Assembly (NCBI GenBank): GCA_015231405.1
Contig: JADGBR010000013.1
Coordinates: 7,222 to 71,221, forward strand
Direction of reading: 5' to 3'
Length of the DNA: 64,000 nt
Origin: Candidatus Omnitrophota bacterium
GTDB taxonomy: Bacteria; Omnitrophota; Gorgyraeia; Tantalellales; Tantalellaceae
Shown: positions 41,994 to 64,000 of the stretch, one piece after another
How the letters are laid out: every line of letters starts with the position of its first letter
How positions within the stretch are numbered: the first letter of the stretch is position 1
Translations under genes and position numbers: made by a program
The notes under the pieces: generated by a model
What the model saw: only the letters and a program-made list of their open reading frames with translations
Databases searched by the model: none
Told to the model about the DNA's origin: nothing

Positions 41994-42020
41994 AGGTCTT
42001 TTACCGGGCAAGGGGGGAAC

Positions 42021-43204: not shown

Positions 43205-43210
43205 GGCAGA

Positions 43211-43273
43211 GCGCATGGCGCATGGGGCATGGTGTAAGTTGTATTACCATGCTCCATGCGCCATGCTCCATGC
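43211..43273. terminator. strong hairpin (21-bp stem, 12-nt loop) after gmhB, built from GCATGG repeats
   Basis: gcgcatggcgcatggggcatggt / accatgctccatgcgccatgc; no U-tract so terminator role is inferred. Confidence 0.4.
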
Positions 43274-43303
43274 CGGAATCTAACAGAGAAGGAGAAGTGA
43301 CGG

Positions 43304-43984
43304 ATGAGCATGTTTATTGATACAGTTGATGTGAACGAGGTTGAGGAAATATCCGGGTGGGGGGTAGTATCGGGGTGCACGACCAATCCGCTCATTGTCG
43401 CGAACAATGCCTCGATCGGAGGGAAGCTGGACCTCAAAAAGCGTGTCATGTCCATCGTCGACGCTCTTAAAAAACCTGTCAGCGTCGAGCTCCTCTCCGA
43501 GAAGGCCGGCGAGATGGTAGAAGAGGCCAGGAAATACCATTCGTGGAACAGGGAATACATCAATATAAAGGTCCCGTTCAGCGCCGACGGGCTCAAGGTC
43601 ATAAATGTTCTGGAGCGGAAGGAAAATATCAGGACGAACGCCACGTGTATAATGTCTTTCAACCAGGCTCTTTTAGCGGCGCTCGCCGGGGCCACGTATG
43701 TCAGCATATTCGCGGGAAGGATCAGGGATATGGGATATGACCCGGCGCCCGTCATAAGCGATACGGCGGAGTTCATCTCATCGAGAGGGCTTTCGTCGAG
43801 CATTATCGTCGGCAGCGTCAGGCATATCATGGACGTGAACGATGCGTTCAAGGCAGGCGCTCACATAGTCACGGTAACGCCCGATATCCTCAGGAAGATG
43901 CTCCGTAACCCGAGGACGGAAGAGACCATAAAGGAATTCAACGATAAGTTCCATAGCGCGAGAGAAAAAGGCATGATAAGCTGA
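43304..43984 (+). CDS. transaldolase/fructose-6-phosphate aldolase family protein
   Basis: FIDTVDVNEVEE..GCTTNPLIV N-terminus typical of Tal/FSA subfamily. Confidence 0.7.
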   Translation: MSMFIDTVDVNEVEEISGWGVVSGCTTNPLIVANNASIGGKLDLKKRVMSIVDALKKPVSVELLSEKAGEMVEEARKYHSWNREYINIKVPFSADGLKVINVLERKENIRTNATCIMSFNQALLAALAGATYVSIFAGRIRDMGYDPAPVISDTAEFISSRGLSSSIIVGSVRHIMDVNDAFKAGAHIVTVTPDILRKMLRNPRTEETIKEFNDKFHSAREKGMIS

Positions 43985-43985
43985 T

Positions 43986-47902: not shown

Positions 47903-47933
47903 CCGGCTCGGCCGGAGGGAGAAGCAGGCAATA

Positions 47934-49175
47934 ATGCGGTTCAATAAACTATTACAGGTAAACCCAAGGGACCATTTTTATCGTGACGGGGCCGATAACG
48001 GGAAAAAGATCCGGGTGTGCCTGATAATGTCAACTTATTTGCCGGTATGGGGCGGTGTGCAGAGGCAGCTCGCCAGGCTAGCCGGATATTTCCCGCGTGA
48101 CAGGTTCGAGCTGGTATTATTAACGCGGAGTGTCCCCGGGGCGGCATCTTGCGAATTTTCAGACAATATGAAAATAATCAGGCTATTTGTGACTAACCGG
48201 ATAAAAGCTCTGGATCCGCTGTTATTCACTGCTTTTTCGCTTTGGTGGCTGATATGCAACAGATCGAAATTCGACGTGCTCCACTGTTTTCAGATCTATT
48301 CCCCGGCCATGATAGGCGTCATCGCCAGGAAGATACTCCGGGATAAGAAGGTCCTGGTCAAGGTCACGGCGTCCTGTGAGTTCGGCGAAGCAAGGGAGAT
48401 TAAAAGACTTCCTCTTTCCGGTTTAAGGATCAGGCTCCTTAAAGAGGTTGACTTGTTCGCTGTCATGAGCGGTAAGATGGCCGATGAGATCGCGGAACTT
48501 GGTATAGACCGTTCGAAGATAAAATACATCCCGAACGGCGTTATTTGCCCGGGAGAAAGCGCGTTCGACGCCGTTGTCAAAGAGAAGCGAAGAGCCATTC
48601 TCGGGATCAAAGGGGACGTGGTCGGCATATTCACCGGGAGGCTTTCGGCTGAAAAAAATATCGATAAATTGCTTTTTGCCTGGGATAAGGTAAGGGAGGA
48701 AAGAGAAGGCGCGGTACTTCTCATTCTTGGCGAAGGCGGGAATTACCGGAACGTAGAGAAGGAACTTTTAAAGATAAGCGGCGATCTCGGGCTGGGTGAC
48801 AGCGTCCTATTCCTGGGGCGGGTGGACAATGTGTACGACCACCTTCTCGCCTCCGATATATTTTTCCTGCCGTCGGTCTCCGAAGGGATGAGTAATTCTC
48901 TTCTTGAGGCCATGGCATGCGGCCTTGGCGTGATAGCCGGGGACAATGACGGGAACAGGACCCTTATCCGCGACGGGGTGAACGGGCTTATCGTCAACGG
49001 TAATGACGCCTGTGAAATAGCCGGCGCCGCGAAAAGGCTTATCGGGGACGCGAGCTTGAGGATATCGCTCGGGAAAGCGGCGAAACAAACCGTGATCGAA
49101 GCTTTTTCTATGCAAAAAGTCGCCGAAAGTTATGAAAACATTTACCGCGGGATGACGGCGAGGGCTGTCAGATGA
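47934..49175 (+). CDS. glycosyltransferase family 4
   Basis: GIFTGRLSAEKN...LEAMACGLGVIAGDNDG..LIRDGVNG; start uncertain (ORF open from 47889). Confidence 0.75.
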   Translation: MRFNKLLQVNPRDHFYRDGADNGKKIRVCLIMSTYLPVWGGVQRQLARLAGYFPRDRFELVLLTRSVPGAASCEFSDNMKIIRLFVTNRIKALDPLLFTAFSLWWLICNRSKFDVLHCFQIYSPAMIGVIARKILRDKKVLVKVTASCEFGEAREIKRLPLSGLRIRLLKEVDLFAVMSGKMADEIAELGIDRSKIKYIPNGVICPGESAFDAVVKEKRRAILGIKGDVVGIFTGRLSAEKNIDKLLFAWDKVREEREGAVLLILGEGGNYRNVEKELLKISGDLGLGDSVLFLGRVDNVYDHLLASDIFFLPSVSEGMSNSLLEAMACGLGVIAGDNDGNRTLIRDGVNGLIVNGNDACEIAGAAKRLIGDASLRISLGKAAKQTVIEAFSMQKVAESYENIYRGMTARAVR

Positions 49176-50302
49176 CGAACATACTCCATATTACGACAGA
49201 TTCGGCTATAGGCGGCGCCGAGAACCTGCTCCTCGGGATAGCCAGGGGCTATGACAGGTCAAAGTTCCGCCATTTTTTCGCGACGCTGAAACCGGAAGGA
49301 AGGTTCCACAAATGCCTGAGACAAGAGAACGCGGAGGCGTTCGCTCTCGGTTGCGTGCGCGTCACCGATATACCGCGGGCGTTCGTCCGGCTAGCTTCTC
49401 TTATCCGGGAGAAAAACGTCCACATATTGCATACTCATCTTTTCCATGCGGGTGTGCTGGGACTTATAACTAAAAAGTTCATGCCGGGTGTGAATGTCGT
49501 ACTGACAAGACATTATTCGGACCTCATTTATATTTACGGCAGCCTTGCGGAAAAAATAGCCGACAGGGCCGTATCGAGGGACTTGGAGGCCATAATAGCG
49601 GTATCCGAAGCCGTTAAACGCGTTATGGTGGAGTACGACAAAATAGATCCCTTCAAGATAACCGTGATACATAACGGCGTCGATCCGGCCGCTCTGTCCA
49701 TGATCGATATGTCCAGGGTGAAAGAAGTCCGGGATGAATGCGGTCTCGGCAATTCGGTAGTCGTAGGTACGGTCGGGAGTTTGCACCCACGGAAAGGACA
49801 CAGGTATTTCCTTGAAGCCGCTTCCATGATAGCGCGTTCGGACGACAGGGTCAAATTTCTTATCGTCGGCGGAGGTGAGCTCGGGCGTGAGCTTCAGGAA
49901 CTCGCCTCGGGTCTGGGGATAGGGGACCGTGTGTTCTTTGCCGGATATCGCTCCAGGGTCAACGAATATGTCGCGAATATGGATGTTTTCGTCCAGCCTT
50001 CGGTAGAGGAGGGGTTCGGTATAACCATACTCGAAGCCATGGCGATGGGTAAACCCGTTATCGGTACCAGGATCGGCGGTATACCTGAGATAATAAAGGA
50101 CGGGACCAGCGGGATACTCGTTACTCCGAAAGATCCCGTGGCTATGAGTGAAGCGGTGCTATCGATGCTCGGGGATCCCGCCACGGCCGTAAGGATGGGC
50201 GAATCCGGGAGGGAACGAGTGAAGAAAGAATTCACTCTGGCCGGTATGATAAAGAAATACGAAAGATTCTACGATGGGATAAGCGGGAGGGTGAAAGGAT
50301 AG
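49172..50302 (+). CDS. glycosyltransferase family 4
   Basis: ILHITTDSAIGGAE N-terminus; TVGSLHPRKG...ILEAMAMGKPVIGTRIGGIPEII. Confidence 0.8.
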   Translation: MTNILHITTDSAIGGAENLLLGIARGYDRSKFRHFFATLKPEGRFHKCLRQENAEAFALGCVRVTDIPRAFVRLASLIREKNVHILHTHLFHAGVLGLITKKFMPGVNVVLTRHYSDLIYIYGSLAEKIADRAVSRDLEAIIAVSEAVKRVMVEYDKIDPFKITVIHNGVDPAALSMIDMSRVKEVRDECGLGNSVVVGTVGSLHPRKGHRYFLEAASMIARSDDRVKFLIVGGGELGRELQELASGLGIGDRVFFAGYRSRVNEYVANMDVFVQPSVEEGFGITILEAMAMGKPVIGTRIGGIPEIIKDGTSGILVTPKDPVAMSEAVLSMLGDPATAVRMGESGRERVKKEFTLAGMIKKYERFYDGISGRVKG

Positions 50303-50305
50303 AAT

Positions 50306-52204
50306 ATGTGCGGTATATGCGGGTTCGTACTAGGGCGCTTCGGAGCTTACGACACTAAGGTCCTCGAGGCCATGTGCGATAATATGCGGCATCGCGGACC
50401 GGACGATGCGGGCTACTTCCTTTCGAAAGGGCGGGTACTGGCAGGTCTCGGTCACAGGAGGCTTAGCATAATAGACCTGTCGGAATCCGCCAGGCAGCCT
50501 ATGGGCAACGAGGACGGGACTGTTATGTCGGTAGTGAACGGCGAAATATACAACTACACCGATCTTAGGAGGATATTGACGGAGAAAGGGCATTTCTTTC
50601 GATCGGGATCGGACAGCGAAGTGATACCTCATCTTTATGAGGAATACGGCGACTCTTTCGCTACGCATCTTCGGGGGATGTTCGCGGCGGCGGTGTGGGA
50701 CGTTAAAGAGGATAAGCTCGTTCTTGTACGCGACAGGATGGGGAAAAAACCTCTTGTTTATGCGGTGTTCGAAGGGAATATTGTTTTCGCTTCGGAGTTC
50801 AGAGCGCTTCTCGCTTTTCCCGGCATAGAGCGGTCGGTCGATAGAGACGCTATAGCGTGGTATCTTAGATATGGCTATATCCCTTCCCCGATGACGGCTT
50901 TCAGGGGCTTAAAGAAGCTGGAACATGCCAGTTATCTCGTATATAGGCGCGGGCAGATCGCGATAAATAAATACTGGAAAAGGGATCTCTCGGTACAGAG
51001 GAAGATAGGGTTAGACGAGGCGGCGGAAGAGCTATATGAAAAGCTTAACGATTCCGTCAGGGTAAGGATGATGAGCGACGTCCCTCTCGGGGCTTTCTTA
51101 AGCGGAGGCGTGGATTCAAGCGCGGTAGTTGCTATGATGGCCCGCAACTCGCAAGGGAAGGTAAGGACTTTCTCGATTGGGTTCAGGGAAAACGCGTATA
51201 ACGAGCTGGGATATGCCCGGGCGGTTTCCGAATACGTGGGCACGGAGCATAGCGAGTTCATAGTCGAAGAGGACGCCGCGTCTATCCTCCCGGCCCTTGT
51301 CGAAGCTTACGGCGAACCTTTCGCCGATTCGTCGTCCGTTCCGACTTTCTACGTGGCGAAAATGACGGCAAAAAGCGTCAAAGTGGCTCTTTCCGGCGAC
51401 GGAGGGGACGAGAATTTCGCCGGATATGACAGGATATTCGCGAACCGGTGGGCCGAGATCTACCGATCTTTCCCCGGCCCGTTTAAAGCCTTGGCCGAAG
51501 CTTGTCTGGGAAAAGCCGCAGCGAGGCACGCCGATATTAAAAACAAGGCCGAAAGGGTTCGGAGATTCCTTCGTGCTTCGGGCCTGCCCATAGCTGAAAG
51601 ATACGAATACTGGCTCAGCATCGCTGACCGCTCGTTTGAGAGAGAACTTTACACGCCTGATTTTTTACGGGCGGCTTCCGGTATTGATACGGCTTCTCTT
51701 ATGCGCGCGGCTTTTCTCGCTTCGGGGACACGGGATATAGTGAACGCCTCTCTTTATGCCGAACAGGAACTGACGCTCCCTAACGATTATCTCGTCAAAG
51801 TGGACATAGCGAGCATGCTGAATTCCCTGGAGGTGAGGAGCCCGTTCCTTGACCAGGCGATGATAGAGTTCTCTTCCGGGCTTCCTTCATCGCTCAAGCA
51901 GAGGGGAACGACCGGCAAGATCGTCCTTAAGCACATGATAAGGAAATATCGTCTCCTGCCGGAGTGTGTTCTAACTAGGGGCAAGATGGGTTTCGCCATA
52001 CCCGTGTCGAAATGGTTAAGGGAAGGACTTTCGGGCCTTTTATCGGACGCTCTCCTTTCGACGGAAAGCCTCCGGAGGGGATATTTTGCAGCTTCTAAGC
52101 TTAAAGAGATGCTGAGCGCGCACATGAGCGGAAAAAAAGATTATGGCCCGCAGCTATGGGCCTTACTTGTCCTTGAGCTCTGGCACAGGAGGTACATTGA
52201 CTAA
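50306..52204 (+). CDS. asnB: asparagine synthase (glutamine-hydrolysing) family amidotransferase
   Basis: MCGICGF N-terminal nucleophile, SGGVDSS PP-loop. Confidence 0.85.
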   Translation: MCGICGFVLGRFGAYDTKVLEAMCDNMRHRGPDDAGYFLSKGRVLAGLGHRRLSIIDLSESARQPMGNEDGTVMSVVNGEIYNYTDLRRILTEKGHFFRSGSDSEVIPHLYEEYGDSFATHLRGMFAAAVWDVKEDKLVLVRDRMGKKPLVYAVFEGNIVFASEFRALLAFPGIERSVDRDAIAWYLRYGYIPSPMTAFRGLKKLEHASYLVYRRGQIAINKYWKRDLSVQRKIGLDEAAEELYEKLNDSVRVRMMSDVPLGAFLSGGVDSSAVVAMMARNSQGKVRTFSIGFRENAYNELGYARAVSEYVGTEHSEFIVEEDAASILPALVEAYGEPFADSSSVPTFYVAKMTAKSVKVALSGDGGDENFAGYDRIFANRWAEIYRSFPGPFKALAEACLGKAAARHADIKNKAERVRRFLRASGLPIAERYEYWLSIADRSFERELYTPDFLRAASGIDTASLMRAAFLASGTRDIVNASLYAEQELTLPNDYLVKVDIASMLNSLEVRSPFLDQAMIEFSSGLPSSLKQRGTTGKIVLKHMIRKYRLLPECVLTRGKMGFAIPVSKWLREGLSGLLSDALLSTESLRRGYFAASKLKEMLSAHMSGKKDYGPQLWALLVLELWHRRYID

Positions 52205-52937
52205 CCTGTCATGGAAGAAAACCTGGAAAGCCTTATTTATTGGGGCGGCCGCGGCAGTTGTCATAATGGCATTTAACGCGAAAGTCGGCACTAAGCAGGG
52301 GATAGATTTCAAGGTCACGGAAAAGAAGATACCGCTTTATCTGAAAACCCTGGATTTTATCGACCGGCACTATAATTATTCGAACCTCGTTAGCGGGATA
52401 ACGAAGCCGGGCGGGACGGTCGACGAAAAGGTCATGGATATTTTTAAATGGACTTTCGTTAATATACGCAGGCAGCCGACTTCGCTTCCGACCGTCGATG
52501 ACCATCCCTGGCATATTATAGTAAGAGGGTATGGGGCGGGTGAGCAGTATTCCGATGTCTTTACTACACTATGTACATATGCAGGGGCGCCGGCTTATTT
52601 CATTCTCGTGAAGAGCCGTGACGGTTCAAGGAGATATCCTTTTTCGGTTGTCAGGATGAACGGCAGGGAAAGGGTATTCGACCCGTATAACGGAGTTTAT
52701 TTCGTTTCAGGGAACGGCGAACAAGCCGGTATAGAAGATGTGGCGGCTATGCGGGCACAAAAAATATGCCTCTCCGGCGAACCGGACGTAGATTACGGCG
52801 AGTACCTGCCGGATCTGATGTCTCCGAAAAACACCGTAATAAGAAGAGCCTCGGCCCAGGACCCGCTGGGGAGGATGAAAGCGGCAATAGCCGGCGCCGT
52901 TAAAATGTCGGGCCTTTGGGGTGGAAAGAAAAAATGA
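52143..52937 (+). CDS. hypothetical membrane-anchored protein (weak transglutaminase-like hints)
   Basis: ORF overlapping asnB 3' end by 62 nt; signal/anchor KKTWKALFIGAAAAVVIMAF; start ambiguous. Confidence 0.4.
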   Translation: MARSYGPYLSLSSGTGGTLTNLSWKKTWKALFIGAAAAVVIMAFNAKVGTKQGIDFKVTEKKIPLYLKTLDFIDRHYNYSNLVSGITKPGGTVDEKVMDIFKWTFVNIRRQPTSLPTVDDHPWHIIVRGYGAGEQYSDVFTTLCTYAGAPAYFILVKSRDGSRRYPFSVVRMNGRERVFDPYNGVYFVSGNGEQAGIEDVAAMRAQKICLSGEPDVDYGEYLPDLMSPKNTVIRRASAQDPLGRMKAAIAGAVKMSGLWGGKKK

Positions 52938-54787
52938 TCAAGAACGGTAACGTGATCTGCATATCTTCGATAGACTGGGATTTCGTCTGGCAGGGGCATC
53001 AGGAAATAATGTCGATACTCGCCGCAAACGGCAATAAGGTCCTTTTTATCGAGAACACAGGTGTCAGGATACCCAACCTCAGGGATATCGGCAGGCTTAA
53101 AAAACGGCTTAAGAACTGGTATTCCGGTATATTAGGCATCAGGAAGGAAAAAGATAACCTTTATATCTACTCGCCCCTGATCCTTCCATTTCCGCATCTT
53201 GGCCTGGCGCGGTGGCTCAATAAATACATAGCGCTTTTCAGCATAAAACAATGGATGAGGATCATGGATTTCAGCGATCCGGTCATATGGACGTTCCTGC
53301 CGACGGGGTTCACTCTGGACCTGGCCGATAAGATACCGCATAAGGCGCTGATCTATTACTGCATAGATAATTTTCTCGCCAGTTCCCCCCAGGCTTCGGG
53401 TGTACGGGATACGGAAATAGAGCTTTTTAAACGCGCTGATCTCGTATTCGTTACGGCCATGGAGCTTTACGTCTACTCGAAAAAGTACCGCGACGAAGTG
53501 AGCATATTCCCCTTCGGCGTTAATTTGGACAAGTTCGAGCGATACCGGGAAAGAAAAGAACGGGTTGTTCCGGAAGACATGCTAGGACTACCGCGCCCCA
53601 TTATCGGATACCAGGGAGGTATACATAAATGGGTCGACCTGGAACTTGTAGGGAAAATGGCCGGGATATTTCCCGCGTGGTCATTCGTCATGGTTGGGCC
53701 CAGGCAGGTAGACGTATCCGGGCTGTTAAACATTGGGAATGTCCATTTTCTCGGGAAGAAATCGCATGACGAACTGGTCGGATACATAGATAATTTCGAC
53801 GTCTGTACGATACCGTATCTGATCACGGATTATACCAGGAACGTTTATCCTACTAAACTCAACGAATATCTGGCCCTGGGGAAGACGATCGTCTCTACCG
53901 CACTTCCCGAGGTCCTCTCTTTCAATGATAAATACCACGGGTTAGTGCGTGTCGCCGATGACCATGCGGGATTCGCCGCGCATCTCATGGAGGCAGTTTC
54001 ACGGCCTGAGGCCCCTCCAGCAGCCCTGGCTGAAAGATACAGCGCAGCGGGCGACAACTCATGGCAGAAAAGGGTCGAGGAGATGAGCGTTCTTATTGAA
54101 AAGGCCATGGAAAAGAAAAAAACGGATATCGACACGCGCTGGAACCAGAGCCTGAAAAAAATTTACCGCTCCGCTTCGCGGAAAACACTTATTTTAGCGG
54201 CTGCGGTGTTTTTCTCGTATTTTGCGATATTTAAAACTCCGCTTATATGGTTCCTCGCGGAACCTCTCAGGGTATCGGATGAGCCCCGTAAAGCCGACGT
54301 GATCGTCGTTTTCGGCGGAGGGGTCGGCGAGACCGGCGAGGCAGGGCAGGGATACGAGGAAAGGGTGCTTAAAGCCGTTAACCTCTACAGGAAAGGGTAT
54401 GCCGGGAAGATCATATTTTCAACGGGTTATGTTTATGCCATTAATGAGGCCGATATCATGTGGGCGCTGGCGGTGTCGTTCGGCGTTCCGCCCGAAGATA
54501 TAATACTCGAGAAAAAAGCCGCGACGACATACCAGAATGTAATATTCACGTCACGTATCATCGAGGAAAAAAACTGGAGAACGGCACTTATAGTCACCTC
54601 GCCTTATCATATGAGACGCGTCAGGATGGTCTATGCCACGAATTTTCCGGATATAAATGCGATATCGACGCCGGTCGAGCCATGCAGCTTTTTCGGGAAT
54701 AAGAAAGAGATCAGCTTGCGCCAGATAAGGGCGCTTATCCATGAAATAGCCGCTATCGCGGATTACAAATACAAAGGGTACATTTGA
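52934..54787 (+). CDS. fusion protein: glycosyltransferase-like N-domain + C-terminal DUF218 (YdcF/ElyC-like) domain
   Basis: N-domain ICISSIDWDFVWQGHQEI..; C-domain ADVIVVFGGG...YQNVIFTSRI..ALIVTSPYHMRR. Confidence 0.6.
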   Translation: MIKNGNVICISSIDWDFVWQGHQEIMSILAANGNKVLFIENTGVRIPNLRDIGRLKKRLKNWYSGILGIRKEKDNLYIYSPLILPFPHLGLARWLNKYIALFSIKQWMRIMDFSDPVIWTFLPTGFTLDLADKIPHKALIYYCIDNFLASSPQASGVRDTEIELFKRADLVFVTAMELYVYSKKYRDEVSIFPFGVNLDKFERYRERKERVVPEDMLGLPRPIIGYQGGIHKWVDLELVGKMAGIFPAWSFVMVGPRQVDVSGLLNIGNVHFLGKKSHDELVGYIDNFDVCTIPYLITDYTRNVYPTKLNEYLALGKTIVSTALPEVLSFNDKYHGLVRVADDHAGFAAHLMEAVSRPEAPPAALAERYSAAGDNSWQKRVEEMSVLIEKAMEKKKTDIDTRWNQSLKKIYRSASRKTLILAAAVFFSYFAIFKTPLIWFLAEPLRVSDEPRKADVIVVFGGGVGETGEAGQGYEERVLKAVNLYRKGYAGKIIFSTGYVYAINEADIMWALAVSFGVPPEDIILEKKAATTYQNVIFTSRIIEEKNWRTALIVTSPYHMRRVRMVYATNFPDINAISTPVEPCSFFGNKKEISLRQIRALIHEIAAIADYKYKGYI

Positions 54788-54896
54788 CGTCCAGACTGTG
54801 CCATAATGCGTTATAGCAGGACACAATCCTACTTGTACCAAGCTGAAGTATTACGCCTAATTTGAAGATCGTTCGGGTGAGTCTTCTTTAATCCCC

Positions 54897-54925
54897 TTTT
54901 TAATGTCTGAATTATGTGGTAAAAT
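54897..54925 (+). promoter_or_regulatory. extended -10 promoter candidate (TGgTAAAAT) with RBS aggagggggg
   Basis: TGn-TAAAAT at 54917-54925 in AT-rich gap; ATG 54951 26 nt downstream. Confidence 0.4.
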
Positions 54926-54950
54926 CATAGTCTAGCCAAGGAGGGGGGAA

Positions 54951-55526
54951 ATGCAGTTTATTGACGAAAAAGGAAGAATTTTTGGCAAGATAAATATTAT
55001 CGATCTAATGGTTTTGACAGCTTTTCTGGTGGTCATGCCTATGGCATATGTCAGCTATAATATTACTGTTAAAAAACCCGAACAGTTCGTAAATTTAACA
55101 AATAAGACGAAATTACTGGTACGTATTAAATTTGACGGGGTACCTACGGAGATCGCGGATCAGGTCAAAGAGGGAGATTCAAATTATACCGCGCCTTTTG
55201 GTATGAAACCAAGCCAGCTTGAGCCTGAACCGAGGAGAATTACGGCTGTAGTTAAAAAGATCGTTTACAGGGAGAATGTTAAAACCACAGCGATAGAAAA
55301 AACGGGCCCGTCTTCCCAGATGGAAAAGGCCGTTAATGTCAATGAATGTCTCGGAGAAAAATGCGTTGTAATCGACCTTGAGCTTTCCTGCGATTATGAC
55401 CCAGTGGAGGGATGTTATTCGTATAACGGCGATAAGATCAAGGCGGGTCTCAATTTTAGCTTATTTACATCGTCGTATTACCTCAGGGGTATGATCCTCA
55501 GTTTTAAGCCTGCCGCCGGGGAATGA
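54951..55526 (+). CDS. DUF4330-like membrane-anchored hypothetical protein (very AT-rich gene)
   Basis: N-terminus MQFIDEKGRIFGKINIIDLMVLTAFLVV matches DUF4330-type starts; GC far below flanks. Confidence 0.45.
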   Translation: MQFIDEKGRIFGKINIIDLMVLTAFLVVMPMAYVSYNITVKKPEQFVNLTNKTKLLVRIKFDGVPTEIADQVKEGDSNYTAPFGMKPSQLEPEPRRITAVVKKIVYRENVKTTAIEKTGPSSQMEKAVNVNECLGEKCVVIDLELSCDYDPVEGCYSYNGDKIKAGLNFSLFTSSYYLRGMILSFKPAAGE

Positions 55527-56098
55527 CCATGAGAATGCCGAACATATTTTCAGGGTCGAATACAGTAAGGGCTATAAACTCAGCCAGGCGTTTTTGGGGG
55601 TCTTTTGCGGAGGCTGCCGTTAACTATGCCCGTTCGAGTTATATAAATTCCTTGACCGGAAGGATAGTTCTGGTTTTCCGGACGGCATGGGAGAATAGTT
55701 CTATTGTCAGATCTCTGGACCTTGACGGGCGGGGTATGACCATGGCTGAAAACTCAGTTTTTATAAGGGCAGTTTTAGCGGCATGGGACCGGACCCTAAG
55801 AACGATGAAAGCTGCCAGCGAATGGAGCGTAACCGTCAGGGTTTCTCAAGGTGCCGCTAAAGATATCGGAGACCGTTTTTTACGTAAGATCGGGATAGTG
55901 GTCGTTATCGCCGTTACGACCGAATCGATCCTTATCTTACTTTGCAACAGGGAGATGGATGTCCCAGGATGGTGTATAAGGGCGGCTTTTTTTGCGGAAG
56001 GTATCCTCGCCATACTATGCGGGGCGGACCTGGAACAGGTGAAAGAGGGCAGTTTTGTCCTTCGAAAACTCAGATTGTTTGGAATGAATGAACGGTAA
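55523..56098 (+). CDS. hypothetical protein with C-terminal TM helices
   Basis: ATGA-coupled ORF; no recognisable motifs. Confidence 0.35.
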   Translation: MTMRMPNIFSGSNTVRAINSARRFWGSFAEAAVNYARSSYINSLTGRIVLVFRTAWENSSIVRSLDLDGRGMTMAENSVFIRAVLAAWDRTLRTMKAASEWSVTVRVSQGAAKDIGDRFLRKIGIVVVIAVTTESILILLCNREMDVPGWCIRAAFFAEGILAILCGADLEQVKEGSFVLRKLRLFGMNER

Positions 56099-57242
56099 AA
56101 AAAAAATAATGAGGATCATTACAAGGCTTAATATCGGCGGGCCGGCCATACACGCGGTATTACTTGCTTCCGGCCTCGAGAGGGAAAGGTTCGAGACGGT
56201 GCTGGTCTCCGGGAGTATAGGCCATGGCGAAGGCGATATGGCCTATTTTGCCCGCAATAATGGCGTTAAACCCGTGATAATACCGGAGATGAAAAGGGAA
56301 ATTGACCCGCTGGGCGACATCGCGGCTTTTTTTAAGATCCTCCGTTTGATGTTCGTCGAAAGGCCAATGGTCATCCATACCCATACTGCCAAAGCGGGGA
56401 CCCTGGGGCGGCTCGCGAGTATCGTTTTCAAGGTCGTCGCTTTCGGCCGGGGAGTGAGGATCTACCACACTTTTCACGGGCATGTGTTCCACAGTTATTT
56501 CGGGACTTTTTCGACGCGGTTCTATATAGCGGTTGAAAGGTTCCTGGCATTCTTTACGACCGGGATAATCGCGATCAGCCGGAAACAGCGAGATGAGCTT
56601 GTCAAACTCGGTATAGCCCCGCGCGGCAGGATAGGTATCATACCGCTCGGGCTAGACCTGGAAATGTGCCTGGACTTAGGGATCAGGAAAGGTTCCGACT
56701 CGGACATTGTCACCGTGGGCATAGTCGGCAGGCTCGTTCCCGTGAAGAACCACAGGATGTTCCTCAATGTGGTCAAAAGGATAAGCGGCGGGAGCGCGGT
56801 ACGTCCCGGGATAAGGTTCCGCGTGATCGGTGACGGGCCGATGAGAGAGGAACTCGAGGGATATGCCGGAGAACTCGGTGTGAAAGATATGGTGTCCTTT
56901 GAAGGATGGCTTAAGGATCCCGTCCGGATCTACGGGGAACTCGATATAGTCGCGCTGACGTCGCTGAACGAGGGTACGCCCGTAGCCGTTATCGAGGCGC
57001 TGGCTTCGGGACGGCCATGTGTAGCGACCGATGTCGGCGGGGTAAGCGACGTAATAGAGAACGGGAGGAGCGGGTATCTTATCCCCTCGTTCGACGAGGA
57101 CGCGTTCGCGAAAGCCATCCTGGACCTGATCTCGGACGCCGGGAAGAGGGAGAGTTTCGGTTCATACGGACGACATTCTGTGAGAAGCAGGTTCTCGCAT
57201 AAAAGACTGATCCGGGATATTGAAAAACTTTATACAAGTTGA
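56088..57242 (+). CDS. glycosyltransferase family 4
   Basis: RIITRLNIGGPAIH N-terminus; GRLVPVKNH..LNEGTPVAVIEALASGRPCVATDVGG; start may be ATG 56109. Confidence 0.8.
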   Translation: MNGKKKIMRIITRLNIGGPAIHAVLLASGLERERFETVLVSGSIGHGEGDMAYFARNNGVKPVIIPEMKREIDPLGDIAAFFKILRLMFVERPMVIHTHTAKAGTLGRLASIVFKVVAFGRGVRIYHTFHGHVFHSYFGTFSTRFYIAVERFLAFFTTGIIAISRKQRDELVKLGIAPRGRIGIIPLGLDLEMCLDLGIRKGSDSDIVTVGIVGRLVPVKNHRMFLNVVKRISGGSAVRPGIRFRVIGDGPMREELEGYAGELGVKDMVSFEGWLKDPVRIYGELDIVALTSLNEGTPVAVIEALASGRPCVATDVGGVSDVIENGRSGYLIPSFDEDAFAKAILDLISDAGKRESFGSYGRHSVRSRFSHKRLIRDIEKLYTS

Positions 57243-57251
57243 GGGGGAAAG

Positions 57252-58211
57252 ATGAAGTATCTGATAACCGGCGGGGCGGGGTTCATAGGCTCGCACCTTG
57301 CGGAAAAACTGCTTGGGTCAGGGCACGATGTTAACATCATAGACGACCTTTCCACCGGAAGCCTTGAGAATATAAGCGGTATACGGAACAGCAAAAAGTT
57401 CCATTGTACGATCAACTCTATAATGAACCCCGACGTAATGGAAGACCTGGTCGCGAAGACGGACTATGTAGTGCATCTCGCCGCGGCCGTAGGCGTGAAG
57501 TATGTAATAGATAATCCGCTCCTTGCGCTCGAGACCAATATCAACGGGACGGGCTTGGTCCTCTCGATATGCAATAAATTCAAAAAACCGGTCTTTATCG
57601 CCTCTACGTCCGAGGTATACGGCAAGAACGATAAGGACGCCCTGAAGGAAGACGACGACAGGCTCCTCGGATCGACCCATATCTCCAGGTGGGGATATGC
57701 CGCCAGCAAAGCCGTCGACGAATTCCTGGGTCTCGCTTATTTCAGGGAGAAGAAACTTGATGTCACCATCGGCCGGTTTTTCAATATCGTCGGGCCGAGA
57801 CAGTCCGCAAGGTACGGTATGGTAATACCGCGAATGGTAAAACAGGCTCTTTTGGGGAACCCTATCACCGTTTACGGCGACGGGAAACAGAAAAGATGTT
57901 TTACATACATAGACGACGCGCTTGAAGGTGTGGTAGGGCTCATGAACTCTGAAACAGCCCCGGGAGAGATATTCAATATCGGGAATACCGCGGAAGTGAC
58001 CATCGAAGAGCTCGCCGGGAGGATAAAGAAACTGGCCAATTCCCGGTCGAAAATAGTCTATGTACCCTACGAGAAAGCCTATGAAAAAGGTTTTGAGGAT
58101 ATGAAACGCAGGAAACCGGATCTCGGCAAGATAAAAAAGTTCACAGGGTATCATCCGAAACATGGATTGAACGATATATTGACGAAGACTATAGAGTATT
58201 TCGAGGCGTAA
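57252..58211 (+). CDS. NAD-dependent epimerase/dehydratase (paralog of 21492-22556)
   Basis: KYLITGGAGFIGSHL, VHLAAAVGV, YAASKAVDE (YxxxK). Confidence 0.8.
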   Translation: MKYLITGGAGFIGSHLAEKLLGSGHDVNIIDDLSTGSLENISGIRNSKKFHCTINSIMNPDVMEDLVAKTDYVVHLAAAVGVKYVIDNPLLALETNINGTGLVLSICNKFKKPVFIASTSEVYGKNDKDALKEDDDRLLGSTHISRWGYAASKAVDEFLGLAYFREKKLDVTIGRFFNIVGPRQSARYGMVIPRMVKQALLGNPITVYGDGKQKRCFTYIDDALEGVVGLMNSETAPGEIFNIGNTAEVTIEELAGRIKKLANSRSKIVYVPYEKAYEKGFEDMKRRKPDLGKIKKFTGYHPKHGLNDILTKTIEYFEA

Positions 58212-58244: not shown

Positions 58245-59438
58245 ATGGGGATGAACAGAGATAAGGCATTGGCCTGGCTTGATACGATAACCGAAGCGGG
58301 TATCTGGATGTTCTTTTTCGGATTGCCTTTTTCCAAATCATGCGTCGAGATATCGTTCGGCGTGATAATGATACCGTGGCTCATCCGTAGAATTATCATA
58401 TACGGGGTCAAAAACCCGCTTTGCGTCATGAGGACGGTCTCTACGGGGTTGAACCCGGCCATAGCCTGTTATGCCGCCGCATGCGCGCTGTCTCTCCTGG
58501 GTACAGCATCCGTCAAACTGACGGCCGTCGGCCTGTTATGCAAACTGTTCCAACAGGTCTACACCTTTTTTATAATAGCTGAAAGGGTGAACACCCGGGA
58601 CAAGCTTCTCCGCGTAACAGGCGTGCTATTCCTATCCATGGCGCTCATTTCGGCTGACGCCATATTCCAGAAGATCACCGGACGGGATTTTATCAGGGGA
58701 TACGGGCTTTTCGGCGACGAGGGGAGCGTCCAGGCTTCGTTCGGAAATCCCAACAGCCTTGGGAGCTGGATCTCCATGGTATTCCCCCTAGCGGCCTGTT
58801 TCGCTTTTTTCCCGTGGCCGGACCACGCATTACTGTCCCGGATATCCGGCCGGATTAGGGTGTTCGGCAAGGTGCTATTATGTGTCCTGACGGTCGCGCT
58901 TTTTGTGTCACTTCTCTTTACGGCGTCCAGAGGCGCCTGGGCGGCGGTCTTCATAGCTATTCTCATCATCGCGTCAAAAATAAGCAAAGCCCCGTTACTG
59001 TGCGCCAGATCCTTTACGGCTTCAAGGAAGCCGTTCTCGGGCTCTCTGATACCTGCCGGTTCCATAATGACACAGGCTATCTCCCCCTTATTCTCCCGGA
59101 ATATCTTTTCAAGTGTTTCGACCCTGTTGTACTCGAAAGGGATCGTCAGTTCCCTTACCGCCTTCGGCACGCCGTCGTTCCTCGCGGTAGTCCCTATGAA
59201 CCAGTCCTGCCAGCCGTGGTATCCCGAACAGGCTATCTTGTCCTTCCCCGTGTACGCCCTGGCGGCGCGGACGGCGCCGGATGTGGCATCCGACCCGTTC
59301 TTGCCGAACCTGACCATCTCAGCGGACGGGACCGTTTCCGAGATCAGCCCGGCGAGCTCGCCTTCAAGCCTGTGCGGCAAAGTAAAAGTCGTCCCTTTTC
59401 TGATCGTCTCTATCACGCTGTTCTCGACGGCGGGATAA
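58245..59438 (+). CDS. O-antigen ligase/Wzy_C family membrane protein, apparently truncated (homology ends near 59000)
   Basis: Multi-TM with TASRGAWAAV motif; after about codon 252 the frame becomes S/P/T-rich and is antisense to the convergent gene. Confidence 0.5.
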   Translation: MGMNRDKALAWLDTITEAGIWMFFFGLPFSKSCVEISFGVIMIPWLIRRIIIYGVKNPLCVMRTVSTGLNPAIACYAAACALSLLGTASVKLTAVGLLCKLFQQVYTFFIIAERVNTRDKLLRVTGVLFLSMALISADAIFQKITGRDFIRGYGLFGDEGSVQASFGNPNSLGSWISMVFPLAACFAFFPWPDHALLSRISGRIRVFGKVLLCVLTVALFVSLLFTASRGAWAAVFIAILIIASKISKAPLLCARSFTASRKPFSGSLIPAGSIMTQAISPLFSRNIFSSVSTLLYSKGIVSSLTAFGTPSFLAVVPMNQSCQPWYPEQAILSFPVYALAARTAPDVASDPFLPNLTISADGTVSEISPASSPSSLCGKVKVVPFLIVSITLFSTAG

Positions 59439-60418
59439 GCATGCCCCAGTATAACGGCTCCCAGGGCCATGGAGTAATCTATAAATTCGTTATTATCGAC
59501 GTCCCATATCCTGCACCCGCTGGCCTTTTCGGCAAAAACCGGGGCTACGCCCTGGACGAATTGCGTCGGCCCTTTACTGAAAGTCTGGCTCATCCCAGGT
59601 ATGAGTCCGGCGACCTTGCCGGCGAGTTTTTGTGACACGCTTATATCTATCCTTCGCGGCTCAACGTCTCCTGAATCGATAAAACTTTTATAATACCCTT
59701 CGTTTATCACGGGGGGATCCGTTTTGACCGATATACCGGGTTTTTCCCTTAGAAGATCGAGAACATCGTCCGCCGTGAACACCTCTCCCGCGGCATAAAG
59801 GCGTTTATAAACTCCCCGCACAAAAATAAGATCGTCCATGGTATCCACGGACCATTTGTGCTTATTCACGTCCACGGGTATATCGCTTTGTACGTTCTTT
59901 ATCCTGAATTTCCGCTCATCCCTTAAATAAGGCGTAACATGTTCCCTGAAATATTTTTCCTTTGTTACCTTCCAGGCCTCCTCCAGCGCGCCAAAAGAGA
60001 ACACTTCCACATCAGTGCCTTCCGGGTATGAATAGACCAGGGTATTGGCGGTATAATCGTAGCCGCCTTCGAGATGGACCTTCATGACCTTTTCAATTAT
60101 GTCCGGCGAGCACAAAGGGCAGTCTGAAGTGACCCTGACCACGGTATCGGCTTTATTTTCAAGCGCCGCCGTGTAAAACCGGTCTAGGACGTCGTCCGCG
60201 TCACCCCTAAAGAACACTATCCCGTTCTCCAGAGCGAACCGGACTATGACCGAGTCCTCGTCTTTCACCGTGGTGGCTATTACCACTCTGTCTATGGACC
60301 TGACCCGTCTCAGCCTGTCCACCACATGCCACAGCATGGGTTTCCCCTCTATTTCCATGAGAGTCTTCCCGGGGAACCGGGAAGATCCCATCCGGGCCTG
60401 GACTATTCCCACTATCAT
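58559..60418 (-). CDS. fusion: acylneuraminate/sugar cytidylyltransferase (SpsF/NeuA-like) + class III aminotransferase (GSA-aminomutase-like), 3' end apparently degenerate
   Basis: IVQARMGSSRFPGKTL (CTP-transferase); MVRFGKNGSDATSGAVRAARAYTGKDKI...ALLIFDAMM aligns to HemL-type up to the LxFDEVMTGFR block, then homology is lost for the last ~134 codons. Confidence 0.6.
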   Translation of the reverse strand: MIVGIVQARMGSSRFPGKTLMEIEGKPMLWHVVDRLRRVRSIDRVVIATTVKDEDSVIVRFALENGIVFFRGDADDVLDRFYTAALENKADTVVRVTSDCPLCSPDIIEKVMKVHLEGGYDYTANTLVYSYPEGTDVEVFSFGALEEAWKVTKEKYFREHVTPYLRDERKFRIKNVQSDIPVDVNKHKWSVDTMDDLIFVRGVYKRLYAAGEVFTADDVLDLLREKPGISVKTDPPVINEGYYKSFIDSGDVEPRRIDISVSQKLAGKVAGLIPGMSQTFSKGPTQFVQGVAPVFAEKASGCRIWDVDNNEFIDYSMALGAVILGHAYPAVENSVIETIRKGTTFTLPHRLEGELAGLISETVPSAEMVRFGKNGSDATSGAVRAARAYTGKDKIACSGYHGWQDWFIGTTARNDGVPKAVRELTIPFEYNRVETLEKIFRENKGEIACVIMEPAGIREPENGFLEAVKDLAHSNGALLIFDAMMRIAMKTAAQAPLDAVKRSDTKSATVRTHNSTLPNTLIRPDIRDSNAWSGHGKKAKQAARGNTMEIQLPRLLGFPNEAWTLPSSPKSPYPLIKSRPVIFWNMASAEMSAMDRNSTPVTRRSLSRVFTLSAIIKKV

Positions 60419-61401
60419 ACTTTCACCGTCTTCCCTATGGAGGCGGACTTATGGCACGCCATGACCACCTTCAAGACACCTTGAGCTTCACCGATATCAT
60501 TCACGGTCTTTTTCCGGGTTTTAACGCATTCAATAAAGTGCGTGGCCTGATCGATGAACATCTGTTCCCTTTCGGTATTGATATTCTCCTCGAACACGGT
60601 ACTTTTTCGGGCATCCACGCCGAACAGTTCAACTTTTTGCGAAATGTAATCCCATGTCACGACCCCTTTATCCCCGATGAACTTGCAATGCCTCCTGTAG
60701 GTCCTTTGCAAATAATCCAGGTGCACCTGGGCGACTGTACCCTTTCTGAATACAAGCAGTATTTCCGCGAGATCCTCGGTGGAAATGTCAAGGCCGCTCA
60801 CTTTCCCGCAATAACAGAAAACCCGGTCAACTTTCCCGAACAGGCGGCACAAAAAATCTATTTCGTGGATTATATCAAGGATAACCCCGCCACCCAGCTC
60901 TTTCCGGGCGCTATACGCCGCCCGGTAATCGGTCCCCGGGCGCCAGTATGGCAGATAAAACCCCGCTTCGGCGCGCGCCGACAGCACCTTGCCTATTTTG
61001 CCGTTTTCTATGATGCTCGCGGCTTTTATGAAGCTCGGGAAAAACCTTGTATTGCACGCTACCATAGTTACGAGCTTGTGCCTGGCGACGGCCGCCTTTA
61101 GCCTGTCTATCCCGGAAAGGTCGTTCGAAAGCGGTTTCTCTATGAACAGATCGATCCCTTTCTCCGCGAATGCCAGGGCTGTTTTCACATGAGTCACCGT
61201 CGGCGTACAGATGAACGCCCCGTCATAGTTTTTTTTCATGGCCTCCGGCAGTGTGCCGTATACGTCTATCCCGAACGACCTCACGATATTGGCGCGGGCA
61301 CGTCTCGCCGGGTCTACCCCCGAGATCTCGTGACCCATGCGCAAAAGATTCCTGATATGCCTCTCGCCTATCGACCCGAGTCCCGCCACTAAAAATCGCA
61401 T
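60415..61401 (-). CDS. Gfo/Idh/MocA family oxidoreductase
   Basis: MRFLVAGLGSIGERHIRNL; EKPLSNDLSG. Confidence 0.75.
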   Translation of the reverse strand: MRFLVAGLGSIGERHIRNLLRMGHEISGVDPARRARANIVRSFGIDVYGTLPEAMKKNYDGAFICTPTVTHVKTALAFAEKGIDLFIEKPLSNDLSGIDRLKAAVARHKLVTMVACNTRFFPSFIKAASIIENGKIGKVLSARAEAGFYLPYWRPGTDYRAAYSARKELGGGVILDIIHEIDFLCRLFGKVDRVFCYCGKVSGLDISTEDLAEILLVFRKGTVAQVHLDYLQRTYRRHCKFIGDKGVVTWDYISQKVELFGVDARKSTVFEENINTEREQMFIDQATHFIECVKTRKKTVNDIGEAQGVLKVVMACHKSASIGKTVKV

Positions 61402-61413
61402 ATCGTCATCCCT

Positions 61414-62790
61414 TTAGTTGTGTTTCACCTTATTCCACGCGTTAAGCTCTTCCGCCATCTCTTTCTGCTTTTTCATAAGTGTCTCGTCCGAAAAACCTGT
61501 AAAATTGACGACTATCTTCTCTCCCTGTTCTCCGAGGCCCATGATATACCTTTCTTCGTCGCCTATAAGCCCGCGCTCCACGGCCATCTTGTAAAGTTCG
61601 GTCCCGGGATAAGGCGTCATGAAAAAAATCACCTCCGGAGCCAGCCCGAGTTCTTTACAGAAATCGGCTGTTTCGCTCAGCGACTCTTCATCTTCACCCG
61701 GATAACCTATCATGAAAGAACAGGCCGCCGATCCCAGATATTTCTGGGTCAACCTCACCGCCTCCTTAGCCTGTTCGACCGTGACGCCTTTCTTGATCAG
61801 GTCGAGCATCCTCTGGCTGCCGGACTCTATCCCGTAACCGATCCAAACACATCCCGAACCGGCCATCTTCCTTATCAGTTCTTCGGTCATCAGATTAGCC
61901 CTGCCTGAACATCCCCAGGTGATATTTTCGCCGACGCTTTTCGAGAAACGGGTTATCTCTTCGCAAAACCCGTGAACCTGCTCCCTGCTGACCACAAATT
62001 CGTCGTCAAAAAAATGAAAATATTTCACGCCGTATCTCTCGTAAAGGGCCTTGATCTCCCCGACTATGTTCCCGGGCGTCCTCATCCGGTATTTCTGGCC
62101 CATAAAATCGTGGTAACAATAAATGCAGGAATACGGACAGCCCCTCGACGCGAGCAGGTTCATGGACAAATTATTTTTCCCTTCGGCAGCTCCGTCCAGC
62201 CATTTGTTCTTATTCGGCGCCCCGACCGGATTAGACAGGTATATTTCCATGGGGAACAGGTCCCACGCGGGAAAAGGCTGCGCATCCAGGTCCGCTATCG
62301 GCGGGCGCGGCCCGGTACTAACTATACTCCCGCCGTCGTCCTTAAAACATATCCCTTTGACATCCCTTAGGGATATCCCTTTTCCCAGCGCGTCAAGCAG
62401 TTCGGCGATGGTCTCTTCCCCTTCCGACAGGCACACGATATCCACGGGATTATTCCGTAACATCAATTCGGGAACGGAAGTGCCCACGCTGCCGCCTATG
62501 ATTAGCGGTTTAAGCGGATGGTGCTTTTTGATCACCCCGGACAGCCACTTGATGTACTTATACGTCGTGATTATCCCGCCTATCCCGACAACGTCGAACT
62601 CGGCGTCTTTTACGCGCTGTTCGACGGATATTCTATCGGCCCTCAGCGCATTGATGTCATAAACCTCCGCGGTCCTCCCGGTCTGGCGGATAACCGCCGC
62701 TATCAAACCCAGTCCCAGAGGAAAACAATTCGGTTTTGACCACTCCCTGATCGGAGGATTGATCAACAATACTTTCTCAATGGACACCAA
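61414..62790 (-). CDS. B12-binding domain radical SAM protein
   Basis: N-terminal B12-binding-like region; CPYSCIYC cluster. Confidence 0.75.
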   Translation of the reverse strand: MVSIEKVLLINPPIREWSKPNCFPLGLGLIAAVIRQTGRTAEVYDINALRADRISVEQRVKDAEFDVVGIGGIITTYKYIKWLSGVIKKHHPLKPLIIGGSVGTSVPELMLRNNPVDIVCLSEGEETIAELLDALGKGISLRDVKGICFKDDGGSIVSTGPRPPIADLDAQPFPAWDLFPMEIYLSNPVGAPNKNKWLDGAAEGKNNLSMNLLASRGCPYSCIYCYHDFMGQKYRMRTPGNIVGEIKALYERYGVKYFHFFDDEFVVSREQVHGFCEEITRFSKSVGENITWGCSGRANLMTEELIRKMAGSGCVWIGYGIESGSQRMLDLIKKGVTVEQAKEAVRLTQKYLGSAACSFMIGYPGEDEESLSETADFCKELGLAPEVIFFMTPYPGTELYKMAVERGLIGDEERYIMGLGEQGEKIVVNFTGFSDETLMKKQKEMAEELNAWNKVKHN

Positions 62791-63913
62791 GCGCCCCCTT
62801 TAAGGCCTTAACAACGTATTTGATCTCCTTTTCCTTCATTTCGGGAAAAATAGGCAAAGTTATCGCCTGGCTGTAATACTTCTCGGCGACTGGACATGAG
62901 ACGTTCTTATATCCGGCGGACCTGTAGAACGGCTGAGTGTATACCGGGATGTAGTGTACGTTCACATTTATGCCTGCCCCGCGTAATCTGTCAAAGACAT
63001 TTTTCCGTCCAGTTCGCACCCTTATAACGTAAATGTGCCAGGCCGACTTCCCCAGCTCTCCGGCCCCGGGCAGTTTAAGACCGTCTATACCCGATAATTC
63101 TCGGGTATAGGTTTCGGCTATCTTCTCTCTTCTTTTAATGAAACCATCCAGCCTTCTCAGCTGGGAGAGCCCAAGCGCACACTGTATATCGGTTATCCTG
63201 TAGTTATACCCCAGCTCCCTCATCTCGTACTGCCATTCACCCTCCGGATGGGCGATATCCCGGGTTATCCCGTGATTTCTCAACAAAAGCAACCTCTTAT
63301 ACAACTCCTTGCTGTTAGTAGTCACCGCCCCGCCCTCACCGGTAGTGATGGATTTTACCGGATGAAAACTGAAGATCGTCATATCGGAATGCTCGCAGCA
63401 GCCTATCCTGCGCCCCTTATACTCGGCGCCGAGAGCGTGCGCCGCGTCTTCGATCACGATAAGCTTATTCCTCCGGGCTATTCTCCGGATATGTTCAAGG
63501 TCCGCCGGCCGGCCGGCGAAATGCACGGGGATCAGGGCACATGTCTTCTTCCTGATCTTTTTTTCCATGTCGGCGGGGTCGATATTCACGCTGTCTTCCA
63601 GGACGTCCGCGAAAACGGGTTTCCCGCCCGCGTACAGGACACAGTTCGCTGAAGCGACGAACGTTATCGCCGATGTTATCGCTTCTCTCCCGGGCTTTAT
63701 CCCGGCTGCTATCGCGGCTATGTGCAGCGCCGCCGTACCGCTTGAAACAACTACGGCGTATTTCGCCCCGGTATATGCCTGGAGGGCGTCCTCGAATTCT
63801 TTCACTTTAGGCCCTTGCGTTATGAAAGGTCCTTCTATAGCCCTCCTTACGGCTTCAATATCGGCCCGGGATATCGATTGTTTCCCATAGGGTATTACCA
63901 TTTTCCCGGGCAT
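62777..63913 (-). CDS. DegT/DnrJ/EryC1/StrS family PLP-dependent sugar aminotransferase
   Basis: ITQGPKVKEFE..YAVVVSSGTAALHIA..FSFHPVKSITTGEGG. Confidence 0.8.
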   Translation of the reverse strand: MPGKMVIPYGKQSISRADIEAVRRAIEGPFITQGPKVKEFEDALQAYTGAKYAVVVSSGTAALHIAAIAAGIKPGREAITSAITFVASANCVLYAGGKPVFADVLEDSVNIDPADMEKKIRKKTCALIPVHFAGRPADLEHIRRIARRNKLIVIEDAAHALGAEYKGRRIGCCEHSDMTIFSFHPVKSITTGEGGAVTTNSKELYKRLLLLRNHGITRDIAHPEGEWQYEMRELGYNYRITDIQCALGLSQLRRLDGFIKRREKIAETYTRELSGIDGLKLPGAGELGKSAWHIYVIRVRTGRKNVFDRLRGAGINVNVHYIPVYTQPFYRSAGYKNVSCPVAEKYYSQAITLPIFPEMKEKEIKYVVKALKGALGVH

Positions 63914-63917
63914 CTCA

Positions 63918-64000
63918 GGATCCTCCGTTTATGGTTCTACGCAATTCCCGTACGGTCAGGAATTCCGGGTTGTCCTGGCTTGTGTACCTGAAGCCGTCCT
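63918..64000 (-). CDS. 3' end of upstream gene (partial, function unknown)
   Basis: Open frame ..DGFRYTSQDNPEFLTVRELRRTINGGS* ending 4 nt before DegT start. Confidence 0.3.

Follow-up and report, generated by a model that had tools for sequence, protein, structure and literature searches.

A shared breakpoint truncates an O-antigen-ligase-like gene and a cytidylyltransferase-aminotransferase fusion gene on a Candidatus Omnitrophota contig

Fusions of an SpsF/PseF-type cytidylyltransferase with a HemL-like aminotransferase (approximately 683 amino acids (aa); NF004856/PRK06209-like) are common in gene clusters for nonulosonic acids (pseudaminic or legionaminic acid), and the Wzy_C/O-antigen ligase family (PF04932) comprises proteins of the WaaL, Wzy and O-oligosaccharyltransferase types. 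Both gene families are well known. Genes that lack their ends within an assembled sequence are marked by the annotation pipeline PGAP as truncated pseudogenes ('incomplete; partial in the middle of a contig'). The main type of chimera produced by multiple displacement amplification is the inverted join in which a segment in between is deleted and the junction has 2-21 nucleotides (nt) of complementarity (Lasken and Stockwell 2007, PMC1855051). Here we describe a junction in Candidatus Omnitrophota/Omnitrophica at which one member of each of these two gene families, facing each other on opposite strands, is cut short. The source is a single 72,303-bp contig of a metagenome-assembled genome (MAG), and the window analyzed is a 64-kb stretch of this contig. 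As an event or as an artefact, the breakpoint is of an ordinary kind and does not represent a new kind of gene.

DNA and protein alignments placed the breakpoint at 58971-58972 (+/- 2 nt), where ligase sequence passes into reverse-complemented aminotransferase sequence. Two open reading frames (ORFs) run across this point on opposite strands and overlap by 880 bp. Each is composed of a homologous 5' part and a tail:

58971..58972, no strand: breakpoint; possible microhomology of at most 2-4 nt, no filler, no repeat
58245-59438, plus strand: ORF of 397 aa
58245..58970, plus strand: 5' part (codons 1-242) of a Wzy_C/O-antigen-ligase-like gene, from gap-free identity to protein P0121 and contig L001
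58971..59438, plus strand: tail of the plus-strand ORF, 155 codons and a stop; antisense of the fusion gene, non-coding
58559-60418, minus strand: ORF of 619 aa
58973..60418, minus strand: 5' part (codons 1-482) of a fusion of CTP_transf_3 (SpsF/PseF-like) and class-III aminotransferase, from Pfam, alignments and NF004856
58559..58972, minus strand: tail of the minus-strand ORF, 137 codons and a stop; antisense of the ligase-like gene, non-coding

The closest relative of the plus-strand ORF is P0121, a protein encoded on the JGI contig L001 (2,541 bp; JGI 3300042261, Ga0451520_0089516). The two proteins are 91% identical over 191 residues by BLASTP and approximately 90% identical over 205 residues by tblastn. 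At the DNA level, the identity between the window and L001 is 92.5% over positions 58354-58976, uninterrupted to 58970 and followed by an abrupt divergence. Past the breakpoint, L001 continues as ..ATCTCGGCAGCAAAAAAG.., and P0121 extends for 181 residues that hold nearly all of its Wzy_C domain (residues 176-310, 77.3 bits in Pfam). The window copy stops at the equivalent of P0121 residue 203, with approximately 28 of the roughly 135 Wzy_C residues kept. Up to the junction the ligase stump is undamaged, with neither a frameshift nor a stop codon.

Compared with the PF04932 family, the window gene is similar in that its N-terminal membrane part is homologous to a family member (residues 1-242, 91% identity to the Wzy_C-bearing P0121) and in that it ends a glycan cluster which also holds a Wzx-type flippase. 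It differs in being cut 28 residues into the domain of about 135 residues. Accordingly, no Wzy_C domain above the Pfam threshold was found in the ORF, and neither the whole translation nor residues 1-242 matched any Pfam family even at E<=1, so that the ligase-like identity rests on the relative P0121. An earlier note, made from the sequence of the window, had described the ORF as Wzy_C/ligase-like and recognisable for about 250 codons. This holds for its relationship to a ligase-like protein, but not for the Pfam threshold; the motif TASRGAWAA is located where that note placed it, as is ALLIFDAMM on the opposite strand. The intact ligase-like protein may, as judged from its family, be a ligase, a polymerase or an O-oligosaccharyltransferase. 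No NCBI protein corresponding to the plus-strand ORF was found at any ATG start (12 alternative starts were tried; GTG and TTG variants could not be matched).

The minus-strand ORF corresponds to the public protein MBF0216712.1, a 619-aa product named 'aminotransferase class III-fold pyridoxal phosphate-dependent enzyme'. The CTP_transf_3 domain (PF02348) is complete, with residues 3-180 matching profile positions 1-177 of 217 (E=4e-34) and aligning gap-free with eight homologues. The match to Aminotran_3 (PF00202) is partial, covering profile positions 9-230 of 403 and ending at residue 482, and the NF004856 profile was matched only at positions 8-236 of 450. Both BLASTP against the 683-aa protein P0002 (61% identity) and the alignment of eight homologues showed homology running gap-free to LLIFD482 and stopping there. 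Beyond LLIFD, EVxTGFR...GKAMxNG and some 200 further residues follow in the homologues. Thus, the complete class-III aminotransferase fold is lacking, and the GKAMxNG motif with the pyridoxal phosphate (PLP)-binding lysine and some 200 residues are absent. The aminotransferase stump is otherwise undamaged, without frameshift or stop.

The window copy resembles the described fusions in identity (54-62% over residues 1-482), in domain order and in having PseB and PseC upstream, as in the Omnitrophota locus L002. It differs in lacking the approximately 200 C-terminal residues with the lysine motif, and the pseG-like and NeuB/PseI genes of L002 were not among the scanned ORFs of the window. The 118 other fusion homologues listed among the best 120 database matches are 663-707 aa long, with P0046 (464 aa) as the sole exception, and 70 of 80 GTDB loci carry a full-length copy. 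No homologue was found to end naturally at this position; full-length homologues that did so were what the earlier note had named as evidence against truncation. With two genes devoid of their C-termini in the middle of a contig, the locus is similar to the truncated pseudogenes flagged by PGAP, but here the truncation is unflagged in the public record MBF0216712.1, which was released as a normal protein.

The identity of the ligase-like gene ends at 58970 and the Asp482 codon of the fusion gene occupies 58973-58975, which leaves a gap of 2-3 nt between the two ends of homology. Such a short distance indicates a junction and not a chance coincidence. The earlier note had put the two end-points within about 40 bp of each other; the coincidence stands, and the distance is far smaller. 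That both convergent genes lose homology at the same point was confirmed by Pfam, by BLASTP and by the alignments to the eight homologues and to L001. The proposed alignment to full-length homologues likewise bore out the claim of two truncated genes at one shared junction, the homologues being longer in both cases (663-707 aa for the fusion, 181 additional residues for the ligase).

Since no stop codon follows the junction in either direction, each stump reads through the antisense strand of the other gene, which creates the two long overlapping ORFs. The tails read each other's gene in the same relative antisense frame (k=1), with third codon positions facing. Their GC contents at codon positions 1/2/3 are 0.46/0.55/0.72 (plus tail) and 0.45/0.53/0.68 (minus tail), and a GC2 higher than GC1 is the reverse of what is seen in genuine genes here. 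Homologues of the tails were not found, and the minus tail remained unmatched beyond residue 482 in all eight aligned relatives. The plus tail had been called low-complexity antisense sequence. It is a plain antisense translation with GC2 > GC1. Runs of 134 stop-free codons start at 4.5% of the positions in that antisense frame in this window, and the chance of two such open tails together is approximately 0.2-0.5%. The locus was probably picked because of these long open tails, and we therefore treat their coincidence as a curiosity. Both ORFs are chimeric and unable to yield the normal enzymes.

The bases common to both parents at the junction are 'CG' at most, or a few more. No shared stretch of 20 nt or more was found at the junction, where the ligase match extends to 58970 and the conserved NGALLIFD codons take over from 58973. 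A repeat search of the window revealed neither a direct nor an inverted repeat involving the junction, and a second copy of the junction sequence was not found in the window. None of the 53 scanned window ORFs of at least 150 aa contained a transposase or recombinase Pfam domain, the scan leaving out ORF 49172-50302 and the antisense-overlapping ORFs. Neither an IS element nor a site-specific invertible element was recognised within the window; a partner repeat could be located outside it. An independent copy of the junction was absent from every collection searched, among them two metagenome scans, one with a wobble-tolerant DNA pattern from the left of the junction and one by ligase protein alignment, both of which also missed L001. 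Exact-protein look-ups of both ORFs, of two neighbours and of P0001 likewise gave no match in a contig index that does not include this MAG. The junction is known from one MAG contig only.

The ligase-like gene is the last gene of a plus-strand glycan cluster, and from the junction to the right end of the window, here called the right arm, all genes are on the minus strand:

21492..58211, plus strand: co-directional glycan-biosynthesis cluster of about 37 kb (Pfam, ORF list)
60415-61401, minus strand: Gfo/Idh/MocA oxidoreductase (Pfam)
61414-62790, minus strand: B12-binding radical SAM enzyme (Pfam)
62777-63913, minus strand: PseC equivalog (TIGR03588, 489.8 bits against a cut-off of 423.5)
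63914-64000, minus strand: C-terminal end of PseB, last 27 codons (..FRYTSQDNPEFLTVRELRRTINGGS*), running off the window (translation)

The genes at 60415..64000 are the upstream part of the pseudaminic-acid-type operon to which the fusion gene belongs, and since the C-terminus of PseB is readable at the right edge, this operon and the contig continue past the window. A complete pseudaminic-acid operon (PseB, PseC, PseF-type, PseG, PseH, PseI/NeuB) is not present in the window, where the PseC equivalog, the PseB C-terminus and the cytidylyltransferase domain were seen. NeuB and Glyco_tran_28_C, which both occur in L002, were found in none of the 53 scanned ORFs, with the same ORFs outside the scan as above.

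Searches with tblastn and blastn gave no match anywhere in the 64-kb window for the 3' end of the ligase gene, the downstream genes of L001 or the C-terminus of the fusion. L001 carries at least 1.9 kb beyond the ligase breakpoint, with a gene for an FkbM-type methyltransferase and then a further gene following the ligase on the same strand. The co-directional operon in L002 consists of pseB, pseC, an aldo-keto reductase, the fusion gene, a pseG-like gene, WbqC, PIG-L, NeuB and a radical SAM gene, and all 18 ORFs of that locus are on one strand. More broadly, in 53 of the 63 GTDB loci with enough flanking sequence, the first long ORF downstream of the fusion gene points in the same direction. 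Judged by these relatives, both operons are predicted to be cut mid-operon. The minimum loss of sequence is 1.15 kb, and the comparison with relatives puts it at a minimum of 2.5 kb and probably at more than 6 kb. A protein search for copies of the ligase C-terminus, FkbM and the third L001 gene in the same MAG returned none. This negative is weak, because the search missed the FkbM protein of L001 (P0146), although the collection contains it and it matches a third of the query at 100%.

The switch of strand, the switch of operon polarity and the switch of GC skew all fall exactly at the junction. The plus strand has a positive GC skew in every 2-kb bin from 1 to 58 kb, including values from +0.04 to +0.115 at 8.8-20.8 kb despite the minus-strand genes there, and a skew from -0.13 to -0.19 to the right of the junction. 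We also pooled the coding-strand skew at four-fold degenerate sites by gene group:

46 plus-strand genes: pooled skew +0.121, standard error 0.014
minus-strand genes of the left part: pooled skew -0.188, standard error 0.031
four right-arm genes: pooled skew +0.117, standard error 0.042

Compared at the site level, the right arm was indistinguishable from the plus-strand genes (p=0.96) and differed from the minus-strand genes of the left part (p=1e-8), for which only 2-3 genes (8801-14806, 17537-19075) serve as a reliable reference. In the Omnitrophota locus L068, ORFs on the minority strand are likewise negative in skew. These patterns suggest that the left part is a leading-strand region of an Omnitrophota genome with a high gene-strand bias, and the right arm resembles leading-strand DNA in reversed orientation, if the skew is linked to replication. 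A skew of the plus-gene type in the right arm fits an inverted join, be it a true inversion or a chimera, as well as a deletion spanning the replication terminus, and speaks against a simple deletion between operons of one replichore that were convergent from the start. As a separate observation, 46 of the 49 left-part genes in the skew test are on the plus strand.

The tetranucleotide composition of the right arm is within the range of 5-kb pieces from the left arm, which indicates that both arms stem from one genome or from very similar ones. A chimera between two genomes, which we considered, was unsupported, as the tetranucleotide comparison showed no difference between the arms. The shared composition, together with the fact that both arms are glycan loci, suggests a join between nearby parts of one genome.

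Thus, the contig probably holds a misjoin or a rearrangement at the junction. The likelihoods given here for its origin are judgements, not measurements. The origin most likely lies in the assembly and not in the cell, and the reading that we prefer, an inverted chimeric join from the amplification or assembly of the MAG contig, is in our view about evenly balanced between being right and wrong. It is favoured because the junction is known from a single contig, the stumps are undamaged, the arms are functionally related and of the same composition, and the polarity appears inverted. Undamaged stumps have the look of an artefact or of a very recent event. The apparently inverted polarity and the gene order of relatives have also made the 'assembly or inversion breakpoint', which the earlier note had offered as an alternative, the favoured one. 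At 58971-58972 the sequence would switch from the middle of the ligase gene to the reverse complement of the middle of the fusion gene, and the true continuations of both operons would have been left out when the metagenome contig was amplified or assembled. This would have left a ligase stump lacking nearly all of Wzy_C and an aminotransferase stump lacking the half with the PLP-lysine, with the cytidylyltransferase domain alone remaining whole. The locus shares with the inverted chimeras of amplification and assembly (Lasken and Stockwell 2007, PMC1855051) the missing intervening sequence, the few nt of possible complementarity at the junction and the probable origin of both arms in the same genomic neighbourhood; the orientation, as judged from the skew, may be inverted as well.

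Several points weigh against a chimeric join. To end up in a consensus contig, a chimera must normally prevail over the true path. Near the junction there is no stretch that both genes could share, which makes a repeat-induced de Bruijn misjoin unlikely and would call for a chimeric template or read. The skew argument depends on the 2-3 reliable minus-strand genes of the left part, and a horizontally acquired operon inserted in reverse could give the same skew signature. In bacterial genomes, real deletions that truncate genes are frequent, and the loci for surface glycans vary. The artefact is something that we infer with no more than balanced confidence, and not a demonstrated event.

A real deletion is possible, though we lean clearly against it. 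Naturally convergent operons would have lost their distal parts in one event of illegitimate recombination, leaving two young pseudogenes, and the cell would lose its ligase/polymerase step and the pseudaminic-acid pathway. Such an event is consistent with the clean junction, with its few nt of microhomology at most and no mobile element, and with the equal composition on both sides. It also agrees with the relative that has an intact ligase followed by further genes, and with the absence of the missing halves from the window and, as weak evidence, of any close copy from the protein database. Glycan loci are known to vary between strains. However, the minus-strand genes of the right arm carry a synonymous skew of the leading-strand type, opposite in sign to that of the native minus-strand genes (8801-14806, 17537-19075). 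A plain deletion fits this skew only if the replication terminus was spanned, if the right operon is a recent acquisition in reverse orientation or if the skew is not linked to replication, and a deletion across the terminus would have to hit a target of about 10 kb in a genome of a few Mb. The earlier note had proposed the loss of about 1 kb between adjacent convergent genes. This version was not supported, as 1.15 kb is only a lower bound, the size indicated by relatives is approximately 2.5 kb at the least, probably >6 kb, and not 1 kb, and L001, the 53 of 63 loci and the skew all disfavour it.

A real and recent inversion or rearrangement within a co-directional glycan supercluster, with its ends in the ligase and fusion genes, is doubtful. 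The coincidence of the switches in strand, operon polarity and GC skew at the junction is what an inversion would produce, and relatives have long one-strand clusters such as that of L002. The second junction, joining the 3' end of the ligase on the minus strand to the 3' end of the fusion gene on the plus strand, would be located to the right of the window; operon and contig do continue past base 64000. On the other hand, repeat-free inversions inside one replichore are rare in comparison with deletions, and no recombinase, IS element or inverted repeat was found in the window. The protein search returned no protein from the same MAG similar to the ligase C-terminus or FkbM, but this search is known to overlook entries. 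An inversion with both ends inside the window was rejected, since the missing parts were unmatched there by tblastn and blastn. Very improbable is a reversible form, in which the junction would be one end of an inversion with both loci intact in one orientation and both broken in the assembled one; if true, it would represent a gene-disrupting switch of two surface-glycan pathways in Omnitrophota. Deletion and inversion taken together, that is, a fixed natural variant with loss of glycan genes, come to somewhat less than an even chance.

Genuine overlapping genes with novel C-terminal extensions, or natural gene ends at this site, can be excluded for practical purposes: both ORFs do remain free of stops for 155 and 137 codons beyond the junction (each expected at approximately 4.5% of positions in this frame) and NCBI lists the 619-aa product as an ordinary protein, but no homologue ends here, the tails have no homology and the codon-position composition of antisense sequence, the catalytic halves of both enzymes are missing, and the 92.5%-identical relative diverges abruptly at the junction.

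The main value of the finding is as a quality flag on the contig and on the public record MBF0216712.1, which is a chimeric read-through with the antisense of a ligase-like gene as its last 137 residues. Glycan or metabolic inference for this MAG should not take for granted that either the O-antigen-ligase-like enzyme or the pseudaminic-acid pathway is intact. Should the junction be real, it would represent the natural loss of two surface-glycan genes at once in an uncultured phylum, with modest relevance to questions of phage-host interaction or symbiosis. Other proteins of the window are found in the public records MBF0216707, MBF0216709, MBF0216710 and MBF0216713.

A contig in ENA (ERZ21966605, 1,933 bp) contains a relative, at least 90% identical, of the GT4 gene at window positions 56088-58211. 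In the gene calls, this relative is split into pieces of 55, 91, 56 and 113 aa, and the 286-aa gene after it is truncated by the end of the contig. The copy looks error-rich or frameshifted, and it ends short of the breakpoint.

The left part of the window contains additional features. CoaC (Flavoprotein, 1618-2157, plus strand) and CoaB (DFP, 2163-2818, plus strand) are separate ORFs in different frames, 5 nt apart; CoaBC is fused in most bacteria. The split may be natural or a frameshift, and it was not used as a sign of indel errors in the contig, being compatible with two separate genes. A 2001-aa ORF (8801-14806, minus strand) is adjoined by a class-I SAM methyltransferase (8020-8784, plus strand); Pfam recognised only an SNF2-related domain in it (residues 1091-1348), leaving approximately 1,700 residues with no family. 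Other long ORFs have no Pfam match, namely 3583-5246, 23570-25006 and 32176-34143 on the plus strand and 19378-20787 on the minus strand. The last of these has a GC3 of 0.43, as compared to about 0.62 elsewhere, and may be foreign DNA. The two that are located in the glycan cluster, with 478 and 655 aa, may encode Wzy-like polymerases or membrane proteins of another kind.

A tRNA-Ser(CGA) at 21219-21308 (minus strand) precedes the first gene of the glycan cluster (21492) by approximately 180 bp, which is a typical position for the border of an island; no integrase was seen. The cluster of about 37 kb contains epimerases, GT1, GT2 and GT4 glycosyltransferases, a Wzx-type flippase, radical SAM enzymes and methyltransferases, as well as a heptose-type gene set, three PMT_2 paralogues, AsnB and DUF4330. 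The PMT_2 (ArnT-like) membrane glycosyltransferases are arranged in tandem at 43986-47902 (plus strand). Just upstream of this trio, at 39623-43984 (plus strand), are genes for a nucleotidyltransferase, a methyltransferase, a GHMP kinase, an SIS isomerase and an HAD phosphatase, which form the heptose-type set, together with a gene of the transaldolase family.

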